DNA from: Eledone cirrhosa
Lineage: Eukaryota
Length of the DNA: 64,000 nt
Assembly: GCA_964016885.1 (NCBI GenBank)
Contig: OZ024743.1
Coordinates: forward strand, 196,106,001 to 196,170,000
Direction: 5' to 3'
Under the pieces are notes generated by a model, which had not been told where the DNA came from, did not search any database, and saw nothing but the letters and a program-made list of their open reading frames with translations. Shown here one piece after another: positions 3,999 through 52,856 of the stretch. The stretch's first letter is position 1; every line of letters starts with the position of its first letter. The position numbers were made by a program, and so were the translations under genes.

Positions 3999-4184
3999 GG
4001 CGACCTACGTAGGAAATCGTATTATCGTGAGCTCCGCAAAGGTTTGTTATTTCCGTTTGTTTAAAAATTGCCATTTATGGAAAATTTTATTGTAAACTGT
4101 TTATAAGCACACATACATTGTTTTCCGAAAAGGACACCCAAAAAGATTGGGGCCTTGTGCCCAAAATTTTAACTTTTATTATTA
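3999..4184 (+). mobile_element. Divergent SINE-like segment abutting the Tx1 5' region
   Basis: Starts GGCGACC..GAAATCGT, loosely like the local SINE head. Ends GGCCTTGTGCCCAAAATTTT..TTATTATTAT, the tail seen in SINEs at 26735-26770 and 36725-36750. Confidence 0.45.
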
Positions 4185-4341
4185 TCCAAAAATTTCTTTG
4201 AAAAAAAATGGCTAATTCCCCTCTGCACGAAGCAGCTGAAAGCCTTCCTCACAAAATAACACCTCACACCGACACCACCATTGTAAATGTTACTACGTTT
4301 GCCAACACAAAAAAAATATAAGCAGTAGCAATATTTTTAAT

Positions 4342-6191
4342 TTGTCTCAGGCAGACATTCATTTCCCGCCATTACCAATGACTGCAGGTGTTAAACCCTC
4401 CACCACCACCACCACCGCGACAACCACCACCACCACCACCACCGCGACAACAGAAACAAAAGAAGAAAAAAATAAATTAACTCGTGACGTCGAAATGAAA
4501 TCAAGCAAAATGGACTCTTCCCCACCAAAGACGACTGACGTCACCACCACCACAACTGAAAATAAAATTAATATTAACGATAGCAACAACAACAACAATG
4601 ACATTATAAAACCGACCCTCAGTTTCGCCATCGTAGCAAAACAATTCGAAGCGTTCACAGTAACTCAAGAAGATTTAGAAAATGCCAAACAAATGGTAAA
4701 GAAAGATGGATACAGGGTCAGCCCCCCCCCCCACCTAATAAAAGGGAGCATCGGCGCCTGTTCACCGTGTCGTATAGAACAATAAATGTAAAATCGCGCC
4801 GAGTGGAACGGGCATCCGAGTCCCAAATCCAAAAAGCTTTGGGACATGTGTGGGCAAGAAAAACCCACATCAGACGTGGGCAAAAGTATGGAACCGTGGA
4901 TGTGTTCTTTGAAACACCAGAGGAGGCTAGAGAACACTCCATGGCCCCATTAAAAAGTAACGACCTCACACTCGTCCCAAGCTATTGTGGCCAGAGACTC
5001 GTAAAGATCAGGGTGACCCACGTTCCACCGGCCATCGAAATTCCCTGGCTAATAGCGGCTGTCCTCGCCGGCATCGAAGCCAACACGAAAATAATAGCAG
5101 TAGCAAAAGAAAAGCAGGAAAGCTGGTCCGGATCTGGGATGGAGCTCCTGATCCAAGCGGACCAAAAAAGCATTGAGGAGATCCCAGAGGTAATAGACCT
5201 CACTGACGGCAGCCACCTCACGGTAATTGTCGAGGGCAGAAGACCTAGGTGTGTCGTTTGTGGTGAAGGAACCCACCTAAGGGCTTTCTGCCCTCAGGCT
5301 AAAAGGTTGAGGCCACCTCTCCTACCCACCCCAGTGACACAACCATCAACACCACCAGTAGCAGAGATGGCAGCAACAACTGTAGCAGCAACAACAGAAG
5401 CAACTATAACAGCAACAACCCCAGCAACAGTAGCAAAACCAACACCACTACCACCACCAGCAAAACCAACACCACCACCACCCAACGCTTCAGAACTAGC
5501 ACCAGCGCCTACACCATCCACCACACCACAACCAAAACTAACGGCTGTGGAGGATTTTCCACTCCCCGGCCTATCACAACTGGAGACAGATTGTGACGAC
5601 GAGGAGTGGGAAACGATATCCGGGAAAAAAAAAAGAAACCAAAAAAGAAAAAATTATCTTCCTTCCCCCTCCAAAAACAAAATACAGAGGGAAACAAATA
5701 GACTAAGAAACAAAGAAGTTAGGACAGATATGCCAGCATCCACACTAGCATCACCAACCCCATCAACCCAAACACCAACACCATCACCATCATTATCCCC
5801 AGCACCACCATCACCTACACCACAAAAGTCACCAAAATGCGAAACAGAAACAAACCCACAACAAACGCAAACAAAACAAAACAACCAAAACGATACACAC
5901 TACACAGCATTAAATTTGAACAACAAGCAATTATTACACTACATCCAACACAACACCAGCATCACAGAAAAAGACTACACAACAACCCCAAAATTCACAC
6001 CACCTCCACACATACAAATCACTCGCATCACACAGAAAACGTACATGACACTAAAACAAAAATTCCCCAAAGACATCAGAGACTTCCGACAAGCACTCTC
6101 CAGGAGGATTTATAAGGACATCCTTCCTGAGGAGGCCACAAGCAGTGAAAAGGATGGAAAAGCCGTCCTTCCCCTACGAGAAGTAAGGTAA
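4342..6191 (+). pseudogene. Tx1-like ORF1 (gag-like nucleic-acid-binding protein), frameshift in C-run 4722-4732
   Basis: RRM-like GTVDVFF, zinc knuckle CVVCGEGTHLRAFC (CX2CX4HX4C), Pro/Thr-rich tail, WETISGKKKR motif. ORFs 4342-4785 and 4767-6191 join via PPPNKREHRRLFTVSYR. Confidence 0.82.
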
Positions 6192-6225
6192 GTGGTCTTT
6201 CCCATCTTTTCCACTCCTTTTCAAC

Positions 6226-9200
6226 ATGACCTCACTCAGAATAGGCAGCATAAATGCGCGTGGCTTGGGGTCGTCATGGAAGCAGGGCCACCTGCTCAAC
6301 GACCTCAGGTCACTAAACATAGATGTAGTGGCCATCAGCGAGACCAGAATCTCCGAAGCACAGGCTTTCGCACCGATCTTCGGCGGCTACGATGTGTACG
6401 CATCTCCCAGCCGTCCGGGATCGGGGGGAGGAGTTGCTGTGCTTTTTCGGAGAGGTTTGGATCTTGCCATACGGGCCATCTTCCTGGACCCAGAGGGTAA
6501 GTTGGTGGTGCTGGACGTGACCAGCGGAGACGGGCAAGCTTTCAGGCTAGTGGCCTTCTATGCCCCGACAGGAGCAGGGCGGCCTGATTTCTTCCGGCGT
6601 CTGGAGACCTTTCTTGGAACGTCCCGCTCTTTAGTGTTAGTGGGCGACTGGGACGGGATCTTAGATGCACGCTGGGATTGTGTGGGATTAGTGGATAGGG
6701 AAGGAGGGTGCAAGAGTCTCACCAACCTGCTCAGACGTTTTGAACTGTCTGACAGGTACCGAATGGATTTCCCGAATGTACCAATGTGGACTTGGACAAA
6801 TCGCATAGGGTCATCCAGATCATATCTAGATAGAGTATTTTGTAGTGAAATAGATAGGTCTAGCATAGGCTGTCCACAATTCAAGATAGTCAGCTACACG
6901 GACCACAAATTCGTGATCTGTGTGCTTGACTTAGATAGGCTTCATAGACGAGGACCCGGCTACTGGAAGTTAAACGCGTCCTTACCAGCGCGCAAGGCCT
7001 ACAGAGACCGGATTAGCGAACTAGTTAAGCGGGCGTTGACGGGGGCCATCGTCAACAACAAGTGGTGGTTTGCTCTGAAAAGAGCAATTAGAATAGAGTC
7101 TATTAGGTTTAGTAAGACTTTAGCAATAGAGAAAAATAGAGCAGAGGGAGAATTAGTTAGAAAATTAGATGAGGCGCTTAGCAAAGGCATCGCGACCGAC
7201 GTACTTGCGGCGAAATTGGCCCTTGACCAATTCTTCAATGCAAAGCACGAAGGCTGCGTTGTCAGAGCTAGGGTGCGTGCTCTCAGACACGAGGGGACGA
7301 AAGCCGTTCAATGGGCCCGAGTGGCGGAGGCGCGTCGTGGCAACAAAGCCACGATCCGGTCTTTGGTGGACCACGACGGGCGCATGCTACTCGATCCCGG
7401 GCAAATGCGTGAAGCTTTTCAGCGACACTTCGCTCAACTGTTCGGGGGCAGTGGCGGGCCGGATCGAGGGATGGACTTTAGTGTCTACCTCGACTGACTG
7501 CCGCGGCTTTCGACCACTGAGGCGGAGTGTTGCGAAAAGCCGATAACAACCGCTGAAGTACGGGATGCAATGACTAGTTGCACAAGGGGTAAATCGCCTG
7601 GTTTGGATGGTCTGCCCTATGAACTTTACGTACAAATGCCAAACTTGTTCGGAGGCCTCTTGGCGGACGTCTACTGCAACTGGCAACAGAACGGGAGAAT
7701 TCCCAGCTCTGTGAGCCGAGGAGCGGTGGCGCTGCTGAGAAAGGATCCGAACAAGGGGGATAACATAGATAATTTTAGGCCCATAACTCTGCTAAACACA
7801 GAGTTCAAGATTTTGGCCAAGGTGCTAGCAAAGAGGTTGGCGCTTGTCGTTGGTGGTCTGGTGGGAGAGGCACAGACATGCGCCATTCCCGACAGATCCA
7901 TCCACGACAACCTCCACCTCATGCGATACATCGTAGAGAGGGTAGCTAGGGAACCTGGCAAGGGTGGGTCTTTGATCAATTTAGATCAATCGAAAGCCTT
8001 CGATAGGGTCGACCATCGTTACCTAGCGGCAGTCCTGAGGGCGGCTGGCTTTGGGCCCGTCTTCAGAGGCTGGATCGCTGCCATGCACAGCAACATCTTC
8101 TCTGTAGTGAGAGTGAACGGTCACCTTTCGGAACCGTTCAACATCATGCGCTCGGTCCGCCAAGGATGTCCCCTCTCGTCCCTATTGTACGTATTGACTC
8201 TCGAGCCATTACTGCACAAACTGGAGACGTTGAGGGGGATCCCGCGCGAACTAGGATGCGGAAGATCCGTGTCAGCATATGCCGACGATGTCACCGTAGT
8301 GGTGTCGAACGCCAAACACATCGAGGCGATCGGCACTACACTAAGAGAATACGAAGCGGTGACAGGAGCAATGATCAACCAGGAAAAGTCAGTGGGCCTG
8401 CAGCTCGGCACCTGGAGAGGCAGGTCCATGCCGTCCAACAGCGTCGTCGGGCGCTGGACGGACGGACCGGTTAAATTGCTAGGGGTCTGGTTCGGTCCAG
8501 ACCTCCAGACGGACAAAAACTGGGACGAGGTGACGAGCAGGGTGGCTTCTCTCACCCAGAAATGGGCTGAGAGGAAGCTATCCCTGAAAGGTCGAGCAGA
8601 GGTGGCGAATGCGTACATCGCATCCGTCATCTACTACCGCCTGACCGTCGTACCTTGTCCTAAGCCCCGCCTGACTGCGCTGGAGCGTTTGCTCTTTCGC
8701 TTCTTGTGGAAGGGACGCGCTCCGATGGTCAGGCGGTCCATCTGCTGTCAACACCCGCTACGTGGAGGGCTGGGCATGCCGTGGCTGATGATGCGCAGAC
8801 ACGCGCTCAGGCTACGACATCTCCACCTCTTCCTCGGCGGTGATCAGGTGTGGTCGCCGTTTGCGAGACACGTTTTTCCCCAGCTCGTCTCCTTGACGGA
8901 GCTGCAGTCCTGGGTCAAGCGAAGACCGAGAGGGAGCGCTTGGAGACTGGAATGTCTTCAGGCGCTCACAGCCCTCGACCAATCGGGCAATGTGATCGGT
9001 GGAAACTGCACCTTGGCGTTCTATAGGTGATTAGTGGAGGGGAAGAGCGACGACGTACTTGGAGAAACTCTAGGCGTCGACGAAAATCAACTAGCCAAAC
9101 TCTTCGGAAGGACTTTCGGGCCGGGGCCTATGGACAACTTTCAGAAATCCCTGGCCTGGCAGTGCTACCGAGGAGCTTTGCCAGTTCGGGATAAACTCTA

Positions 9201-9645
9201 CAGGCATGGAGGTGCCGTCAGCCGGGCATGTCCGAGAGGCGCGCAGGGCGACGAAACCGTCCTGCACGCACTCGTCCAGTGTCCGAGCATTGCTGACTTG
9301 TGGGTTTATGTCGAACACCTGCTGTCACGTGTAGGACGGATCCAGCTATCAGCTGAGTCTATCGTGCGGATTGCCCCGCCCCCTTCCTTTAGCCTGGAAG
9401 GGCAGGCAGTTTTTATCTCTCTGGTGGCCATGGCGAAAGAGATAGTATGGTGGACACGTTTGAAAGGGCTGAAGACGAGCACTTACCTCTTCGGTGATGC
9501 CCTGATTAACTTTTTCAAATTTCATTTGAAAAGGAAAATCAGGGTAGAGAGGGAAGTGCTCTCTTCCCAGCATTTTGTTGAAAGATGGGTGAGAGAAGCA
9601 AGTATGGCCCGAATGAATGGGCCTTCTCTGAGTATGTGTCTGTAA
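6226..9645 (+). pseudogene. Tx1-like ORF2: APE endonuclease + reverse transcriptase + C-terminal Zn finger, two in-frame TGA stops
   Basis: SINARGL, ISETR, FYAP, VGDW, SYLDR, TDH (APE); KSPGLDGLP, FRPITLLN, DQSKAFDRVDH, VRQGCPLS, AYADD (RT); CPRG..ETVLHALVQC. ORFs starting 6226, 7570 and 9034 share one frame. Confidence 0.93.
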
Positions 9646-9887
9646 ATTAAAGGTGGAAAACTGGGAGAGGGCACTTGCCCTGGTGGTCAGGGCCACTGTG
9701 GTCTTTTAATGGGCTTTCTCCACAAATGTCCCTTGGAAGTCTCCCCCCTATTGGGGAATTTTTCTTTGTTATTTTATTTCAACCTCTGTTTTTTTACACG
9801 CAGAAATGCCCATTTGTACCGTCCTGTATTGTCCTGTACTGTCCTTAATGTCTACTTTATGTGAACCCTTGTGTTTAATAAAGAAAA

Positions 9888-9888
<1 letters not shown>

Positions 9889-9943
<55 letters not shown>
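9889..9943. repeat. (TTA)n microsatellite
   Basis: Lies between the Tx1 3' end and the family A 3' end (tail to tail). Confidence 0.98.
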
Positions 9944-9944
<1 letters not shown>

Positions 9945-10087
9945 AGTTGCATTTATCTTGCTTTATGTTCATACGAGTTATCACCAAGTCACAACCAGTG
10001 ACCTCAAGAGACAACAAGGTCCGCCATGTTCAAGAAAGAACATACATACTCACACATGCATCTTTAGTGTTTAGACTTGTGATGTAC

Positions 10088-13000
10088 TTATATTGACAGA
10101 ATCTTCCTTAGTATATGGGCAGTTCCCATTAGTACTATCTTTTGTATTTCTCCTATACGCGTGTTTCCTGGGATTTGCGATAAGTAATCATTAGACCCCT
10201 TAGGTATCATTCCCAGAGCGCCTACAACCACTGGTATTGTTTTAGTTCTCAATTTCCACATTTTTCCAATTTCTATCTCCAGGTCCTTATACTTGCTCAA
10301 TTTTTCAAATGTTTTTATAGATACATTCTTGTCTATTGGAACAGACATATTAATTAGCAGGCATACCCTCTTTTTAAAGTCCTTCAATATTATATCAGGT
10401 CTATTTGCATCTATTTTTCGGTCTGTTTGGATGCTAAAGTTCCACAGGATTGAGATGTGATCTTTTTCAAGTAAGGGAGGTGGTTGATGCTCCCACCAAT
10501 TATTTTGATGGGGCAGGTCAAAATGCTTACACATTATCCAATGTATGTATTGTGCAGCTCTGTCATGCCTGTTTAGGTATTCGGTTGGAGCTATAGGACT
10601 GCACATTAAAATTATATGGTCAATGGTCTCTGGTTGTTTTTTGCATACACGGCATAATGGGCTGCATCCATTTTTTATTATGTTGGCTTGGTAATTTTTT
10701 GTTGGCAGACACTGATCTTGTGCTGATATAATCAGTCCTTCAGTCTCCGATTTCAGTCCAGAGGATGCCAACCACTGATGGGTTAAAGTTTTGTCAACAT
10801 CAAGATTGTTAGCTCGCTCTGGGTATTTTCCATACAGAGGCTTTTCTTGCCATTTCTTAGCCAGTTTCTGTAGCAGTTCTTTCTTTGCAGTTACTTTTAC
10901 CTGCTTTGCTTTTTCTGTGTTTTCCATTTCAGCAGTAAATGGGACTTCTGAAATTTGTAGTCCATTACTGTATCTTTGTGAATCTTTTGTAATGGAATAT
11001 GATCTTTTGATGCTTTCGTGTTTCAAAACGAGTTTGATCATCCAATCATGTGATTCCCTTAGATATGTAGATAATCCAATTGTTGGAGTTTTCAACGCAA
11101 TGTCTAACTGGATTAACCCACGTCCTCCTTCTTTCCTAGGGAGATATATTCTATCTATATCTGCCTTAGGGTGATGCATTCTGTGCATGGTTAAGAATTT
11201 TCGAATTTTTGTATCGAGCCTACGGATCTCTGTGCTTGACCACTTAATGACATTGTAACTGTAGGTTACTACTGGTATGGCAAGCGTGTTTATGGCATCG
11301 ATCCTATTCCTTGCATTCAATTCCGTTCTTAAGATTGCTCTTACTCTGCGGTAACATTCCTTCCTTATCCTTTCCCTCATTGTCGAGTGCTTGATTCCGT
11401 CTCCTTCACAAACACCTAGATATTTGTAAGTTTTTTCTTGATCAAGCTCTCTTATCACGTTCCCCCGATCAAGATTAATGTCTGAACTCTTCAGCAGCTT
11501 TCTTCTGGTCAACGTTGCTTTGGCCCATTTATCTAGTCCAAACTCCATTTTAATGTCATCACTGAACTGCTCCACAGTGGATAATAGCCCTTGCAATTGT
11601 TCATCATTTTTTGCAAATAGTTTCAGGTCATCCATGTAGAACAGGTGATTAATGGTTTTGTCATAGACTCTATATCCATGTTTTGTTTCATTGAGCATTT
11701 TACTTAATGGTATGAGTGCGATGAAGAATAAAAGCGGTGATAAAGATTCACCCTGAAAAATTCCACAATTAATGTTAACTTCTTCAGCTTCCAGTGATTT
11801 TGTTTCACTATTCAAAAGGAGTGTCGTTTTCCATGTCTTCATACTGAATGACAAAAACCTCCTGACAACGGGAGATATTTTGAAAATCTCTAAACATTTT
11901 TCAATCCAACTCTGTGGCAAACTATCGAATGCTTTTTTATAATCTATCCAGGCAATCGATAGATTTTTGTGTCTATTATGACAATCTTCCAGTATCATTT
12001 TGTTAACCAGAAGCTGATCCTTACAGCCATGAGCCTCGTTTACACCCTTTCTGCTCAATGGGAAATAGGTCATTTGTTATCAGGTGGTCATATGTGTATT
12101 CAGTTAGGACTGATGTTAAAATGTTATACATTGTGGTCAAGCAAGCTATCGGTCTGTAATTTTTGGGATTGTTTGTCTCATCATTCTTCGGAAGCAGGAA
12201 TGTAATGCCGTTAACTACCCATGATGGTATCTTTTCTGGCTCCTTAACTATTTCATTGTAAAGTTGGGCTAACAGCTCATGAGACTCTGTGAAGGCATTT
12301 ATCCAAAAGTTTTGTATTTTGTCTTTTCCTGGGGATTTCCATTTGCTGGTTTTTCTTAGAGCCAAGCGCAACTTTTCAACTGTTATATTTTCCCATATTT
12401 GTTCCTCAAGGTGAGCTGTATCTTTCATTTGCCTGTCTATCCATGGGGCATGTATGTTATGAACTTTTTCTTCGGCCCAGATCTTTTACCAGAATTCTTG
12501 CACTTCCTCCTTGGGTGGTATTGATTTAGCAGTTATTGTTGACTTACCAATTTTTCTGTAGAAGTTTCTTTGGTTGTTTTTGAACATATTATTGTCCTTA
12601 TAGAATCTAGATCGTTTTTCAAAGCGCCTTATACGAGCAGCTTTGGCCGACACCTTTTGCTTGATTATTTCTATCAGCATGTCTATGTCACATGTTGATT
12701 TTATACTGTACTTTTTTTTCAATTTTCTAAGTTTAGTTTGTTTAACATGCTCACCTACTTTATAGTTTGTTAAAATTTCTATGTCAGATCGGAGAAGGTT
12801 TATTTGGCGATTGATGTTCTCTTGCCAAGTAGATTTCTTGTGGGAATTCCTTTGTTTTTTCATCTTCACTCCACATAAGTGAGTGGTGACTTTAGCCGAT
12901 GCATAATAGAGATGATTTAAATCAGTAATGTTTAGTTTGTTTGTGATAATAATGTTTTTGAGAATTATGTTAGTCTTGTGTATTATCTTTTGGTTCTGTT

Positions 13001-13736
13001 TGGAGTTCTGGATCTTAGGGAGGGTGTCTCGTTGCCCCATGTCAGATTCTTTCATTTTCATCCATTCGATCATAATTTCATCCTTCAAGTTGGGAAGTTC
13101 ATTCTCATTCATTTCTTTATCATTTACGATCTCATTATTTTCATTTGGAGTTTCATCCTGAGCATGCACTCCCTCCAATTTTTCGATCCTTTCTTTAATT
13201 TGTTCTGTTGCCAGTGATTCCGCCCCAACCCTGGGATTCGAAATGTTGCAGTTTACCTCGTTTTCATTGACACATGTTTCATTTTCCCTTCGCTGACTGT
13301 GTGCTAATAGCTTGATCTGATCAATTTCTATATCAGTTAGTAACTTTTTTCTTACAATATTTCTACGTATATTGGCTAGTTTGTTACTGTCAATATAGCC
13401 TCTGTTTTCGGGATGTTTCTTTTTCCAGTTGATATATGTCTGTTCTGTATTCGATGTATTTGATGGGTAGTACATGGCAGTGTAGAAAGCCTCAAGGACT
13501 TCTTTATTATCTTCCCTTGACCATTTTTCTCTCTTTTTCTTTGGATTTCTTGGTGGTGAGCATGGAGGGCCAACAGTAGGAGTATTCCGGTTATGGGAGG
13601 TCTCCAGCTCCGAAGTGATGGGAAGGTTTGAACCCTTAGCTGATTTTTCGACCCCAGTCTGGTTCCTCTCTGAGGGACGCGGCCCTTTTTTACCCGGGTG
13701 ACGGCCGATCCGGTATGAGATTTTATCATTAGACAT
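10088..13736 (-). pseudogene. Family A polyprotein (N-terminal Myb-like region, RT, CCHC, RLE), stop at 12486 and frameshift near 12030
   Basis: N-terminal REKWSREDN..VLEAFY..LANIRRNI; RT and RLE motifs as in copy 1. Confidence 0.9.
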
Positions 13737-13760
13737 TTACTTTATTTTGTCGCGTTTTAT

Positions 13761-13890
13761 CCTTATCCGCCAAGGGGTAATCATTTCGTGTTACCACTTT
13801 TAGAACGAGTGTCAACCAAGACTAGAGGGGTCGTTCTCCCCTAGAGACACGGCTATTCCCCGCCGGCCGCCATCCCGGTATTTCTTGGTC
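13761..13890 (-). ncRNA. Candidate structured 5' leader (double pseudoknot) of family A
   Basis: Sense-strand helices GACCAAGA/UCUUGGUU, GUGUC/GACAC, CUAGGGG/CCCC(UC)UAG, AGAACGA/UCGUUCU plus two downstream hairpins. Confidence 0.6.
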
Positions 13891-14033
13891 ACGGGGTTTT
13901 CTTTTTGTTGTTTTTTTAAATTGTTATTATCATGAGTGGTTCCTTAATGTGAGCATTGCGTGGCTTAAGAATGAAATTATTAATAATTGTCTCCACTCCA
14001 GGCACAAGGCCAGCAATCACCCAGTACAGTACA

Positions 14034-14075
<42 letters not shown>

Positions 14076-14076
<1 letters not shown>

Positions 14077-18000: not shown

Positions 18001-19975
18001 CAGTGGCCGTATCTCTGTTCCAGGTATTATTTATCTCAGCATTCAGATCATTGTCTGCTTCGGGTGGTTCCTCCGTTCTCTCGACCTCTTCACTTTCATT
18101 TCCCACTGGCTCGTTTGCCTGGCATACTCCACTCTCCATCTCCAATCTAATCTCTCTGCTCAGTTCCTCCAGTTCCAGCTCGCTTATCCACCCATTAGTT
18201 CTTATTACCCGAGCCTGCCCGGCCAATTTTCGTTCATCTAATTTAAATAGACCAATCTCGTTCCAGATGTTATGCATCCGTTTCCTATTGCCTTTCTCCT
18301 TGTGGTTACTCTTAAGGTAACATTGCATAACAGTTCTATTCAATTCTTTCGTCCAGTTGGTTCTGGTCCCTTTCCTTCTTCTTCTTCCTCCGACACCAGC
18401 AGTATTTGGTTGACAGCCAGGTCCCTGCTGCTGAGGCAGAGAGCACCTGTTGGGTGAGAGTCTGTCACATGACATTCTAGTCTCCATTTCACCGTTATTC
18501 GAACTGTTTAGGTTCGACATTTAAACACTCTTATCGAGGATTGGCGAATGTATGGTTACATAACCACCGGTGATTTCATCACCTCCGGTGATTTCGTCAC
18601 TCCTGATGATTTTTGTGTGGCATTATCACGCTGTAGACGAACATAAATAAACAAACAAACAAACAGGCAAAAAAAAAACCAAAAAATGAATAAGCATAAG
18701 TTTCATTGTAATGTAATGTTTGAATGTCTGACTTAGTTTTTGCCTTCCTTTCTCTGTCCGTCTGTTTGTTTTTCTCTTCATTTTTCTTTTCTTTACGTTT
18801 TTCGTTGTTGCTGTGCTGCTTTGATTTTGATTTTTGGTTTTTATATTTTGACCGTGTCATCAATTCACTCTATTTATATATTTTGATGCCTTCCTCTTTT
18901 AGCGGGGACACTACGATGTAGCAGGGGGTAGCGGGAGAGAATAGCGGCGCTAGTGATAATGAGGCAGTGGTGGTGGTGGCGGTGCTGTGCTAGCAGCACC
19001 TAGCAGGAGGTAGTGGGAGAGAATAACGGCGGTAGCGATAATGAGGCAGTGGTGGTGGTGATGTGATCGTAGTACTGTAGTGATGGTGTTGAAGTTGGAG
19101 TAGAAATAGCGGTTGAGGCGACTTGACCAGAGTTTTCATCGTGGTAGTGGTGGTGGTGTTGGTGGTGAAATTATCTTTAGCTATTTAGCTATTTAGTCAT
19201 TTTGCCATTTTCCTCCTTTTCGACTCTAACATTCCTGATCCAAAATTAAATATTAATCTTGTTTATTAATATTATCTAGTGATACCGCCACCTTCCTCTT
19301 TCGTAAGTTAACAGAAGGTAATGGGGGAATAGCGTTGGTAGCAATGAAGGAGTGGTGGTGGCGGTGATGGGATAGTGGTAGTAATGATGGATGGGTGGTG
19401 GCGGCGGTGACTGTAGTGATGGCGTTGTCGTTACTGAGTTTTGTTGAATAGACTGTATTTTTGTTTGATCGGTGAATCTCTGGGGTTAGTCGCGTATATG
19501 TGTTGACATATTTACTTAATATTGGAATTAAACATTTTGTGAAGACTTGAGACAATAATAACAGTAATAATAATTATTATTCTGGGATTGGTGGTGGTGG
19601 TGGTGGTGAAATTGCCGTTATCTGGCTGTTGTATTTAGTGTACACAGAGGAGTGATGGGGTAGGTCGTGTATCTAGTTTGTGGTATTGGTGAAATTGCTG
19701 TTATTTGGCTGTTCTATATAGTGTAGACAGAGGGGTTTTTCTTCCATTTATAACCATTTTCTTTTTTGAATGTAAAATGTATATTACAAAATTGAATATT
19801 TGAGCGATATAACAATATATTATGGATCCGAATCTTCCTGAGGCTTGAGTCTGGTGCTTTATGCATCTTTTGTACTAAGAATTGTTATTTCACAATTGAT
19901 TTAAATATGTTAAAAATCAAAAACTTACGGGAGCGATTTCATGACCTTCCTTCCACCATGTGCGTCTTCTTCCCT
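15022..19975 (-). mobile_element. R4/Dong-like family B, copy 2 (full length if the ~1.45-kb leader belongs to it)
   Basis: Bounded by (TTA)n at 14995-15021 and 19976-20000; ORF 18520-15096; leader shared with 300-1276. Confidence 0.82.
15096..18520 (-). pseudogene. Family B RT-CCHC-RLE polyprotein, disrupted
   Basis: NWTKELN, KSPGPDGV, NYRPITCL, WIDYKKGFD, LLFMDDLKL, YKYLG, CRICGEREETVAHIVSEC, RPD motif, C-terminal LLGTARTLRYVLNI*. Confidence 0.9.
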
Positions 19976-26100: not shown

Positions 26101-26254
26101 CGGTTTTTTGGCATTCAAAATCGGTCTATATTTTACGTGTAGGATTGATAGAGAGTCTGACACCATGCTTTACAGCATAGTTACGTCCCTTTACGTTCTG
26201 AGTTCAAATCCCGCCGAGTTTCAATAAAGGAAATAACATATTAGATAATTGTTT

Positions 26255-26425
26255 CTACTTTTGGCACAAGGCCAGCAATTACCCAGTGTATTACTGGTAC
26301 TTTATTTTATCGACCCCATAAGGATGAAAGGCAAAGTTAACCTCGACGGTATTTGAACTCAGAATGGCAAGGGCCGTACTCTATGCGTCAAAGCATGGCG
26401 TCCGACCCTCTACCGATACTGCCAA
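26255..26425 (-). mobile_element. tRNA-derived SINE (cephalopod OR/OK-like family)
   Basis: GGCACAAGGCCAGCAA..GTACTTTATTTTATCGACCCC..GGATGAAAGGCAAAG..TTTGAACTCAG; B-box GAGTTCAAA on the minus strand. Confidence 0.85.
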
Positions 26426-36577: not shown

Positions 36578-36755
36578 TTGGCAGTATTGGTAGAGGGTCA
36601 GACATGCTTTACAGCGTAGTTACGTCCCTTTACGATCTGAGTTCAAATCCCGCCGAGGTTAACTTTGCCTTTCATCCTTACGGGGTCGATAAAATAAAGT
36701 ACCAGTAATACACTGGGTCATTGCTGGCCTTGTGCCAAAAGTAGAAACAATTATA
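36578..36755 (+). mobile_element. tRNA-derived SINE, well preserved
   Basis: TGGCAGTATTGG (A-box-like), GAGTTCAAATCCC (B-box), core, and GGCCTTGTGCCAAAA tail. Confidence 0.88.
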
Positions 36756-50568: not shown

Positions 50569-52856
50569 AAACAAAATAACACAAGACAGGGAGGAGAAAC
50601 CGATAGTAATAAAAATTATCAATCTTACTAGTGCAGAACCAACACCCAACCTTATCAACTTACTCTCCAAAGGTCTTAAATTCACACCGACCCCACTACG
50701 TCCTAACTACTATGAAATGAAGGAAGACATCACAGACTTCTGTAGAAAGTTACGACTTAGTGAACAACTATTCGACCAGTACAATGATCATGAATCATTA
50801 GCCAGAAATAGAAGCAATTACACCCCTTCAAAAGGTAGAAATAAAATCCTGGACGAATTCTGTGAACACATCACAAACTTCCCTTACCAACACTTGCACA
50901 GACAAAAACACAAGCCAAACAAGAAAGAATGGGAAGAATTAAATAGATTAAAAACCGACAGAACCATTACAATTAAAGAGGCTGATAAAGGGAGTACAGT
51001 AGTCCTAATGGAGACAGAATTCTATATCAACTTAGCGCTCTCCACTTTGGAAAACGAAACATACTACGAAAAGGCTGAACACTACAATCAACAGAAAATT
51101 ATGAGAAACCTAAACACTCTGATCAACCAATACAAAGAAGGACTCACTAACAAAGAATTCAGCTTCATCACAGACTTCACAAGTAAATCCAGCCTTTTCT
51201 ACGGTATCCCTAAAGTACATAAAAGCGAATTAATAAGTAAGACATGCAAGGAAGCCACAGACATAGTCATCAATGTCCCCTCACCCAATGATCTCAAATT
51301 AAGACCTATAATAGCAGGCCCCGCTTGCGAAACGCACCGTCTTAGCAACTTCATTGATACCCTTCTCAAACCCTTCCTCAAGCACATCAAAAGCTATATA
51401 AGGGACGACCTAGATATGCTCAATCACCTCCCTAATATGCCACTTTCTGAAGAAACCCTACTAGTGACGTTCGATGTAGTCAACCTATACTCCAACATCC
51501 CCCACAACCTAGGAATAGAAGCTATCCAATTCTGGCTGGATAATTTCCACAATGAACTCCCACAACGCATCAAAAAAGAATTCGTGATAGAGGGACTCAA
51601 ATTTATCTTGGAGAACAATTACTTCGTTTTCAATAACAAACCCTACAGGCAGAAATCTGGGACCGCTATGGGAACGAAAACAGCCCCCATTATGCCAACC
51701 TAGTCATGGGATACCTGGAAATCACCCTCTACACTAAAGTCATAAACAAATTTGGAAACACCCTCCACTTACACATTGAAAGGAACTGGAAGCGATATCT
51801 AGATGACTGCTTCATCCTTTGGCACGAAAACATCGAAAAACTTAAAGAATTTCACACCCTTATAAATGGGCTCAACACAAATATTAACTTCACGATGGAA
51901 TACAGCCATCAACAACTCCCCTTCTCGACATCCTCATTAAGATCCATAACAAAAAAATAGAAACAGACATATACTACAAGCCCACAGACTCCAAGCAATA
52001 TCTCCCCTTCAACTCTTGCCACCCTAGACACGTTAAAATTAATATTCCCTACAACTTAGCCAAGAGAATCTGTACTATAGTCTCCAATAAAAACATCTGC
52101 TACTTACGGCTACAAGAACTAAAGTACACACTCATAGGCAGGGACTACCCTGCATCACTAATTGACAATGGAATCCAACGTGCCCTAAAACTCAGTACCC
52201 AGGACCTTAGACACCCTAAAGTAAATCAACCAAAACTAAAAGCTCTTCCATACATCTCCACACACAACCCCCTCAACAATGAGGCCTTTGACACCATCCT
52301 CCAGAACATCCCTGTATTGAAAAAGGACCATAGAATGAACCAAATTCTACGAACACACGATATCATAAAGAGCAAAAGACAATCCAAGTCAATGAAAAAC
52401 ATCTTAACACATGCCAAAGTACTGCCAACCACAACAAGGAAACCCACAGTAAAAAAAGGCGATAGACCCAACTGTGGCATTTGCATCAACCTAATAGAGG
52501 GTTCGGAATTCTATTTCAAAGATGGACAACGTTTTATAGTAAAACACAATTTCACATGTGCATCGGAAAATCTAATATATGTATTAACTTGTTCAGGTTG
52601 TCGAGAACAATACATAGGCCAGACTAAAAACAGCCTCCGCCAACGCATGACTGTCCATAGATCCCAAATCAAAATACGGGAATACAGGAAAATACCACTG
52701 AGTGAACACATTGATACCTGTGCCGCCCAAAATCATCCCAACTTCAGAATCTTTCCCCTCTACAAATTTAAAGATAATGCCACCCACACCCAGCGCATCA
52801 GCAAGGAATCTTACTTCATTAACAAATACGGACCCCATCTAAACACTTCTCCCTAA
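50569..52856 (+). pseudogene. PLE RT + GIY-YIG endonuclease ORF (5'-truncated; frameshifts near 51690 and 51925)
   Basis: IINL..LLSKGLKFTPTP, KEADKG, FYGIPKVHK, LRPII, TFDVVNLYSNI, YRQKSGTAMG, KRYLDDCF, NCGIC, NLIYVLTC..YIGQT. Confidence 0.93.

Follow-up and report, generated by a model that had tools for sequence, protein, structure and literature searches.

A covarying chain of pseudoknots around the start codon of a probable Dong/R4 retrotransposon in Eledone cirrhosa, and its possible part in translation start

How LINEs with a restriction-like endonuclease start translation is a still-open question, and R2-type proteins and RNAs are under engineering for gene insertion. A compact, covariation-supported RNA that bears on this question lies on the minus strand of a 64,000-nt stretch of the Eledone cirrhosa genome (the window; assembly GCA_964016885.1, contig OZ024743.1, positions 196,106,001 to 196,170,000). 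A sequence-only reading had noticed there a double pseudoknot in the leader of a Dong-like element and proposed that it was a new self-cleaving ribozyme or an IRES-like fold. What, then, is this RNA? The analysis presented here leads us to suggest, tentatively and with real reserve, that the flagged fold is one covarying module in a chain of pseudoknots flanking the start codon of a Dong/R4 element, and that this chain acts as a platform for translation start. The structure is real and its function putative; the RNA appears to be of the kind known from R2-like elements as their structured 5' RNA. A literature search, which covered few subscription papers, found no description of this RNA; the available text of two papers on octopus repeats (PMC9115989, PMC13282606) mentions Dong and not a ribozyme.

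The fold belongs to a copy of a non-LTR retrotransposon that we call family A (Table 1). Its single ORF combines Myb-like, RT, CCHC and restriction-like endonuclease regions, and its target is TAA, as in Dong/R4 elements; the copy thus probably belongs to this clade, an assignment made by ORF anatomy and target. The RT domain was detected by a domain search and the CCHC motif was recognised by eye; the Myb-like and endonuclease motifs are presumed from inspection by eye. The element had been taken for full length; in the window it is truncated at 14035, and its ORF is broken twice, by an early stop codon (12486) and by a shift of frame around 12020-12076. Other copies have open frames of 1181-1216 aa. 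The surroundings are crowded with such elements: between 1278 and 23229 at least five elements with a C-terminal endonuclease stand in a train on the minus strand, accompanied on the opposite (plus) strand by a single APE-type element (4000-9888), all joined at (TAA)n arrays. Elsewhere in the window, a 328-aa ORF (50717-51703, plus strand) has no Pfam match.

Table 1. Features of the retrotransposon copy and of its structured RNA (window positions; paired strands are written 5' strand/3' strand)
Feature	Position	Strand	Description
Copy of family A non-LTR retrotransposon, probably Dong/R4-type	9889..14035	-	5'-truncated, broken; presumed Myb-like N-terminus, RT, CCHC, presumed endonuclease region
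(TAA)n tail of the copy	9889-9943	-	
(TAA)n array adjoining the truncated 5' junction	14036..14076	-	
Single ORF of the element	10088..13736	-	interrupted in the window copy
Final 140 nt of the long leader preceding the knots	13897..14035	-	includes parts similar to a SINE fragment and to another LINE's 3' end, both antisense; identity presumed from similarity
5' module	13851..13896	-	helix e 13896-13892/13862-13858, hairpin f 13878-13875/13866-13863, loop helix k 13871-13869/13853-13851
Helix a	13890-13883/13821-13814	-	8 bp, first pair G-U; 88.3% paired, conserved, nearly no two-sided change
Helix b	13850-13846/13813-13809	-	4 bp UGUC/GAYA plus terminal pair; 80.9% paired, weakest of the four
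Helix c	13842-13838/13830-13826	-	5 bp closing a 7-nt loop; two-sided switch at two pairs from family A to family C
Helix d	13837-13831/13808-13802	-	7 bp; loop of c paired with downstream strand; A-U/G-C switch between A subfamilies
CUAR linker	13822..13825	-	conserved, unpaired
Helix g and small H-type pseudoknot h/m	13752..13795	-	g 13795-13791/13780-13776; CCUU/AAGG; loop GCG with CGC 13754-13752 past an A-rich linker
A-rich, weakly folded window with AUG (13736-13734)	13714..13751	-	-2.1 kcal/mol for 13752-13710
ORF pseudoknot 1	13680..13713	-	O1 13713-13710/13697-13694, O2 13707-13703/13684-13680; begins 23 nt past the A of AUG
ORF pseudoknot 2	13630..13675	-	O3 13675-13670/13657-13652, O4 13665-13661/13634-13630

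The four helices of the flagged module exist. All of their strands lie on the minus strand where they had been placed, and the coordinates bear out the order a-b-c-d-c'-a'-b'-d', with b' ahead of d', as well as the G-U wobble that opens helix a at 13890. The pair that ends helix b differs between families, with G-C in A and G-A in C. Helix c had been drawn as CUAGGGG/CCCC(UC)UAG (13844-13838/13830-13822); its inner five pairs stand, and the outer CUA/UAG pairs were rejected because they are paired in only 43.7% of cells. With c reduced to 5 bp and CUAR left as an unpaired linker, the last four strands are not fully contiguous, contrary to what had been claimed. The two hairpins said to follow, GGUAA/UUACC (13795-13776) and CCUU/AAGG (13775-13761), are present and end 24 nt before the AUG at 13736, close to the 25 nt first estimated. 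A descriptor of the module, composed after the fold was seen, matches none of 2000 dinucleotide shuffles at two stringencies; within the window it matches the flagged site and 100-nt bins that lie mostly within or beside simple repeats. The nested folding energy is ordinary (z 0.31 and 0.53). Rfam gave zero matches over the whole window at the gathering threshold, a single chance lncRNA match at E 4.4, and none in eight related loci at E 0.5. A hammerhead core was considered and rejected, as the motif sequence lacks CUGA. Four sets of DNA contigs show few differences in the module, all of low depth, two retaining pairing as G-U and one disrupting the terminal pair of b. Among the sequencing runs listed as containing the motif, none was of RNA.

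An initial motif look-up returned 1556 candidates, of which 40 were scored; protein searches of the 3.0-Gb genome added families B, C and D, and a metagenome scan added 20 loci. The four helices were aligned over 24 sequences (10 of family A, 13 of the 30 family C loci, and the metagenome locus L159), in which they are 87.4% paired, against 28-48% when the strands are slid. Nine of the 25 pairs changed on both sides, a count reached by 19 of 500 shuffles, with the 24 rows representing three or four lineages. Between families, helix c went from AGGGG/CCCCU to UGGGC/GCUCA; between A subfamilies, an A-U pair of helix d became G-C. The firm compensatory events lie in c, with two pairs, and in d, with one. 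The covariation among related Dong families that the sequence-only reading had named as its check is found in c and d; helix a is conserved but shows no true compensatory change, and b is the weakest of the four. At the homologous place in L169, c is kept, d is wholly different (UAGAGAG/CUCUCUA) and b, by eye, is not kept; in L174 the arrangement of c is missing, again by eye.

Further helices, beyond those listed earlier, were found both upstream and inside the ORF. With six more helices that precede the AUG, the ten are together 84.4% paired. In the 5' module, which has homologues in L159, L163, L164, L169 and L174, the paired cells amount to 67% for e, 69% for f and 95.5% for k, with e and f weak in family C; equivalents of the h/m pseudoknot are GCA/UGC in L156 and L159 and UCUU/AAGA in L156. 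A search with a covariance model built from the alignment picks out the ORF starts of L174, L156, L163, L169 and L164 (E 0.004-1.1, a rough measure) and gives no match to families B, D or H. The whole forms a conserved island of about 265 nt (13896-13630) that spans the AUG, with at least five knots straddling the start codon. Families A and C are identical at 21-27 of 30 nt per window from 13885 to 13646, at 12-21 upstream and at mostly 12-17 downstream. The island surrounds the AUG and not the element's 5' end, and it sits at the 3' end of a leader of about 1.15 kb.

The strongest covariation is seen in the coding sequence. The first 110 nt of the ORF fold into two tandem H-type pseudoknots, 91.9% paired, with two-sided change at 10 of the 20 pairs among 18 sequences (0 of 500 shuffles); this double pseudoknot covaries more strongly than the a-d module and is near-universal among the loci compared, including the metagenome relatives (L156-L173). 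The pairing is visible even in the protein. Among 152 proteins examined, drawn from clusters at 50% identity, 25 carry the motif, and in 20 of these the residues whose codons pair in O2 agree with the base-pair prediction (shuffle mean 8.3, 0 of 100000), the pairs G/P, A/A and V/T following the O2 base pair. This is a clear case of RNA pairing that dictates amino-acid pairs at a protein's N-terminus.

The start codon keeps its distance from these knots. The AUG lies 23 nt from the first ORF knot in six and 29 nt in two of the eight families measured; by eye, the spacing is 26 or 29 nt in family D. Likewise, in 24 of the 25 motif-bearing proteins a Met stands 8-10 codons ahead of the stretch that the knot encodes. 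Family B keeps O2-O4 (its O1 was judged by eye only). The sole in-frame AUG that this family conserves, in 31 of 32 copies per column, falls within knot 1 and thereby 22-23 nt ahead of knot 2. Family B thus amounts to a single natural test, and its sequences favour an AUG spacing set by the RNA.

The position of the island bears directly on the proposed ribozyme. G13890 had been placed about 30 nt from the element's 5' end; the truncated end at 14035 is 145 nt away from it, and the family's 5' end 992 nt. Of the 29 other copies from the initial look-up, 27 extend at least 400 nt beyond it. An unbiased sample, collected by means of the ORF-start protein, comprised 70 loci, from which 36 rows (35 distinct loci) passed the family A filter. 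None of these 35 ends within 10 nt of G13890, and 17 reach -970 to -992 relative to it, so that the copies mark an element 5' end at about -990; the nearest breaks are a deletion within the element at -20, junctions at around -31 to -45 and another near +43. A self-cleaving RNA at G13890 that would free stacked elements from each other is unlikely from these sequences, since copies do not end at this G and the HDV test fails. As the sequence-only reading itself had remarked, the topology departs from HDV and the L3/J4-2 consensus is absent. A strict HDV-like descriptor, run without a positive control, matched no leader tested, and the module lacks the order P1-P2-P3-P3'-P1'-P1.1-P4-J4/2-P2' with a 3-bp P3. 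The L3 position of the conserved G, which forms a reverse wobble with U in HDV and whose importance in HDV-like ribozymes is documented (PMC3774820), is U in families A and C, L159 and L169.

There are nevertheless resemblances. Active HDV-like ribozymes occur at the 5' end of Bombyx Dong (PMC3774820), and like those of R2, R4 and Bombyx Dong the module is a double pseudoknot of this retrotransposon group with a G-U first pair and an a/d crossing like that of P1 and P2. On one reading, a-b-c-d could be an active or switchable ribozyme derived from a P4-less HDV-like ancestor (a as P1, d as P2) and cutting before G13890. A short P1 is tolerated, that of R2 being possibly 6 bp (PMC3774820); a vestige drawn by eye comprises the G-U first pair, a pyrimidine loop and G-R-C-A-M before d' in A, L159, L169 and L174, and a relaxed HDV descriptor matches L169 at the homologous place. 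We consider such activity highly improbable. Besides the failed strict descriptor, the U at L3 and copies that do not begin at G13890, the nucleotide where J4/2 begins, candidate for the catalytic C, is indeed C in most copies of family A and in L159, L169 and L174 but U in the majority of family C, and a C-to-U change inactivates such ribozymes (PMC10879173). The P3 alternative (slide -1) is 73% paired with no two-sided change, whereas helix c, which would sequester L3, covaries. In contrast to the known HDV-like ribozymes, moreover, the module lies about 990 nt from the 5' end, lacks P4 and has the additional helices b and c.

What separates the island from the element 5' end is a long and heterogeneous leader, 1113-1147 nt with 12-13 upstream AUGs in all five copies counted. 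It is a mosaic, and its antisense SINE-like piece recurs elsewhere in the window (13921-14035, 26239-26294 and 36705-36754); this composition suggests repeated capture of upstream sequence. The element with its ORF at 18520, a distant Dong family with 29% identity over 145 aa, has a distal leader (19975-19270, minus strand) in common with family A, yet its pre-AUG region differs and the island is absent. The island thus travels with the ORF.

These observations favour the translation-start platform. Plain scanning is unlikely with 12-13 AUGs upstream, island and ORF move together, and the AUG stands in an open, A-rich window at a fixed distance from a downstream knot. This spacing is fixed across families and tracked by the AUG shift of family B. 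Of the earlier proposal, the IRES-like half gains indirect support. The task of the knots before the AUG would be to recruit or hold the small ribosomal subunit, and that of the knot 23-29 nt into the ORF to fix this subunit on the start codon. On this model the island would fold in vivo, bind ribosomes and act independently of a cap. Two known systems are comparable: HDV ribozymes of R2 and L1Tc have been proposed to act as IRESs (PMC6765202), and the alphavirus DLP, also a stable structure at a short fixed distance after the AUG, acts at 27-31 nt with a lower limit of 25 (PMC4872096). However, a DLP is expected 25-40 nt after the AUG and the 23-nt spacing falls below this, and a DLP needs scanning, to which the AUGs and knots before the start codon would be an obstacle. 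The DLP moreover consists of one long GC hairpin, and its leader is short and capped, as against tandem pseudoknots plus upstream knots in Dong. Other points count against the platform: the fixed spacing could partly stem from protein constraints, the upstream modules vary by family, and the 18520 element lacks the whole island. A codon mimic of the dicistrovirus IGR-IRES kind was considered separately and rejected: the distance from the last upstream knot (m') to the AUG is 15, 27, 14 and 13 nt in A, C, L156 and L159, and thus not frame-locked, the in-frame AUG is conserved, and Rfam gives no match.

A different role is suggested by R2 itself. The 5' RNA of Bombyx R2 is located in the start of the ORF. 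Like the island, it is pseudoknotted and lies near the 5' end of a restriction-like-endonuclease retrotransposon, and its pseudoknot holds on to the RT and switches on cleavage of the second strand (bioRxiv 10.1101/2023.04.07.536001). The Dong island could be its equivalent, bound by the element's own protein so as to time second-strand cleavage and 5' integration; we regard this as a close rival of the platform, rather doubtful in itself and compatible with it. The ORF start of family A does hold a conserved pseudoknotted RNA constrained at the RNA level, the ORF knots are near-universal and the island moves together with the ORF, all as expected of such an RNA. Yet an R2-like role leaves the fixed AUG spacing and the family B shift unexplained, and three other window copies cut off inside the ORF integrated without the island, a kind of truncation that is common in R2 too. 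Compared with the Bombyx RNA, the Dong island has at least five knots straddling the AUG, two of them at fixed spacing from it, has no match in Rfam, and binds protein only putatively.

The strand order of the flagged module has a further parallel in the flaviviral xrRNAs, which run PK1-P1-P3-PK2-P3'-PK1'-P1'-PK2'. The place of PK1 in this order is given in PMC12081666, and cellular xrRNAs are treated as still undiscovered in the available text of a 2021 review (PMC8374639). As in classes 1 and 2, two pseudoknots are interwoven in the order PK1-P1-P3-PK2, with a long PK1-like and a short P1-like helix; class 2 has a PK1 of 7-15 bp and a short P1 closing in A-G, comparable to the 8 bp of a and the G-A end of b in family C. 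The module would then be a cellular xrRNA that blocks Xrn1/Xrn2 and keeps the ORF-bearing RNA of read-through or decapped transcripts intact. The order turns up again, made of unrelated sequence, in family D and in L163 (its 5' module), which fits such a role, and one metagenome copy (L159) starts right at helix e. On the other hand, there is neither a P2 nor a three-way junction, only 3 nt (UCU/UCA/AAU) lying between b and c; 32 nt separate a from b; Rfam yields no xrRNA match; and the 5' ends do not pile up at the module (0/35). The module also differs from its viral counterparts in its residence in the 5' leader of a cellular mobile element, and its nuclease resistance is putative; we judge this role very unlikely. 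A bolder combination, which we also think unlikely on balance, is that Dong/R4 elements carry an undescribed class of cellular translation-start RNA, in which a ring-knot of xrRNA order upstream of the AUG would block 5'-to-3' decay and load ribosomes on uncapped RNA, and a DLP-like double pseudoknot would set the start codon and dictate the first 35 residues; the knot before the AUG could then derive from an HDV ribozyme by remodelling.

Not all relatives share the a-b-c-d module; in families B, E (L156), G (L163, L164, L166) and H (L160-L162) it is missing or other folds are found. Family D, with the same strand order, shows one compensated pair, GAYC/GRUC being U-A in 10 and C-G in 7 of 19 copies. 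Small H-type pseudoknots, one or two per locus and with RAUAAAA as their A-rich linker, stand just upstream of the AUG in L156, L159, L169 and L174. No protein relatives were found in prokaryote and viral collections. A pattern search retrieved ORF knot 1 alone, followed by unrelated sequence, at L206:490-519 (minus strand), on a contig filed under a bacterial MAG, which is probably an animal contaminant bearing another retroelement. Families B (L031-L060), D (L131-L155) and H each place a compact structured RNA of their own type before the AUG. Family H has a defined 5' end directly after (TAA)n, with a helix opening at its first Gs, and its start is a better ribozyme candidate than the flagged site.
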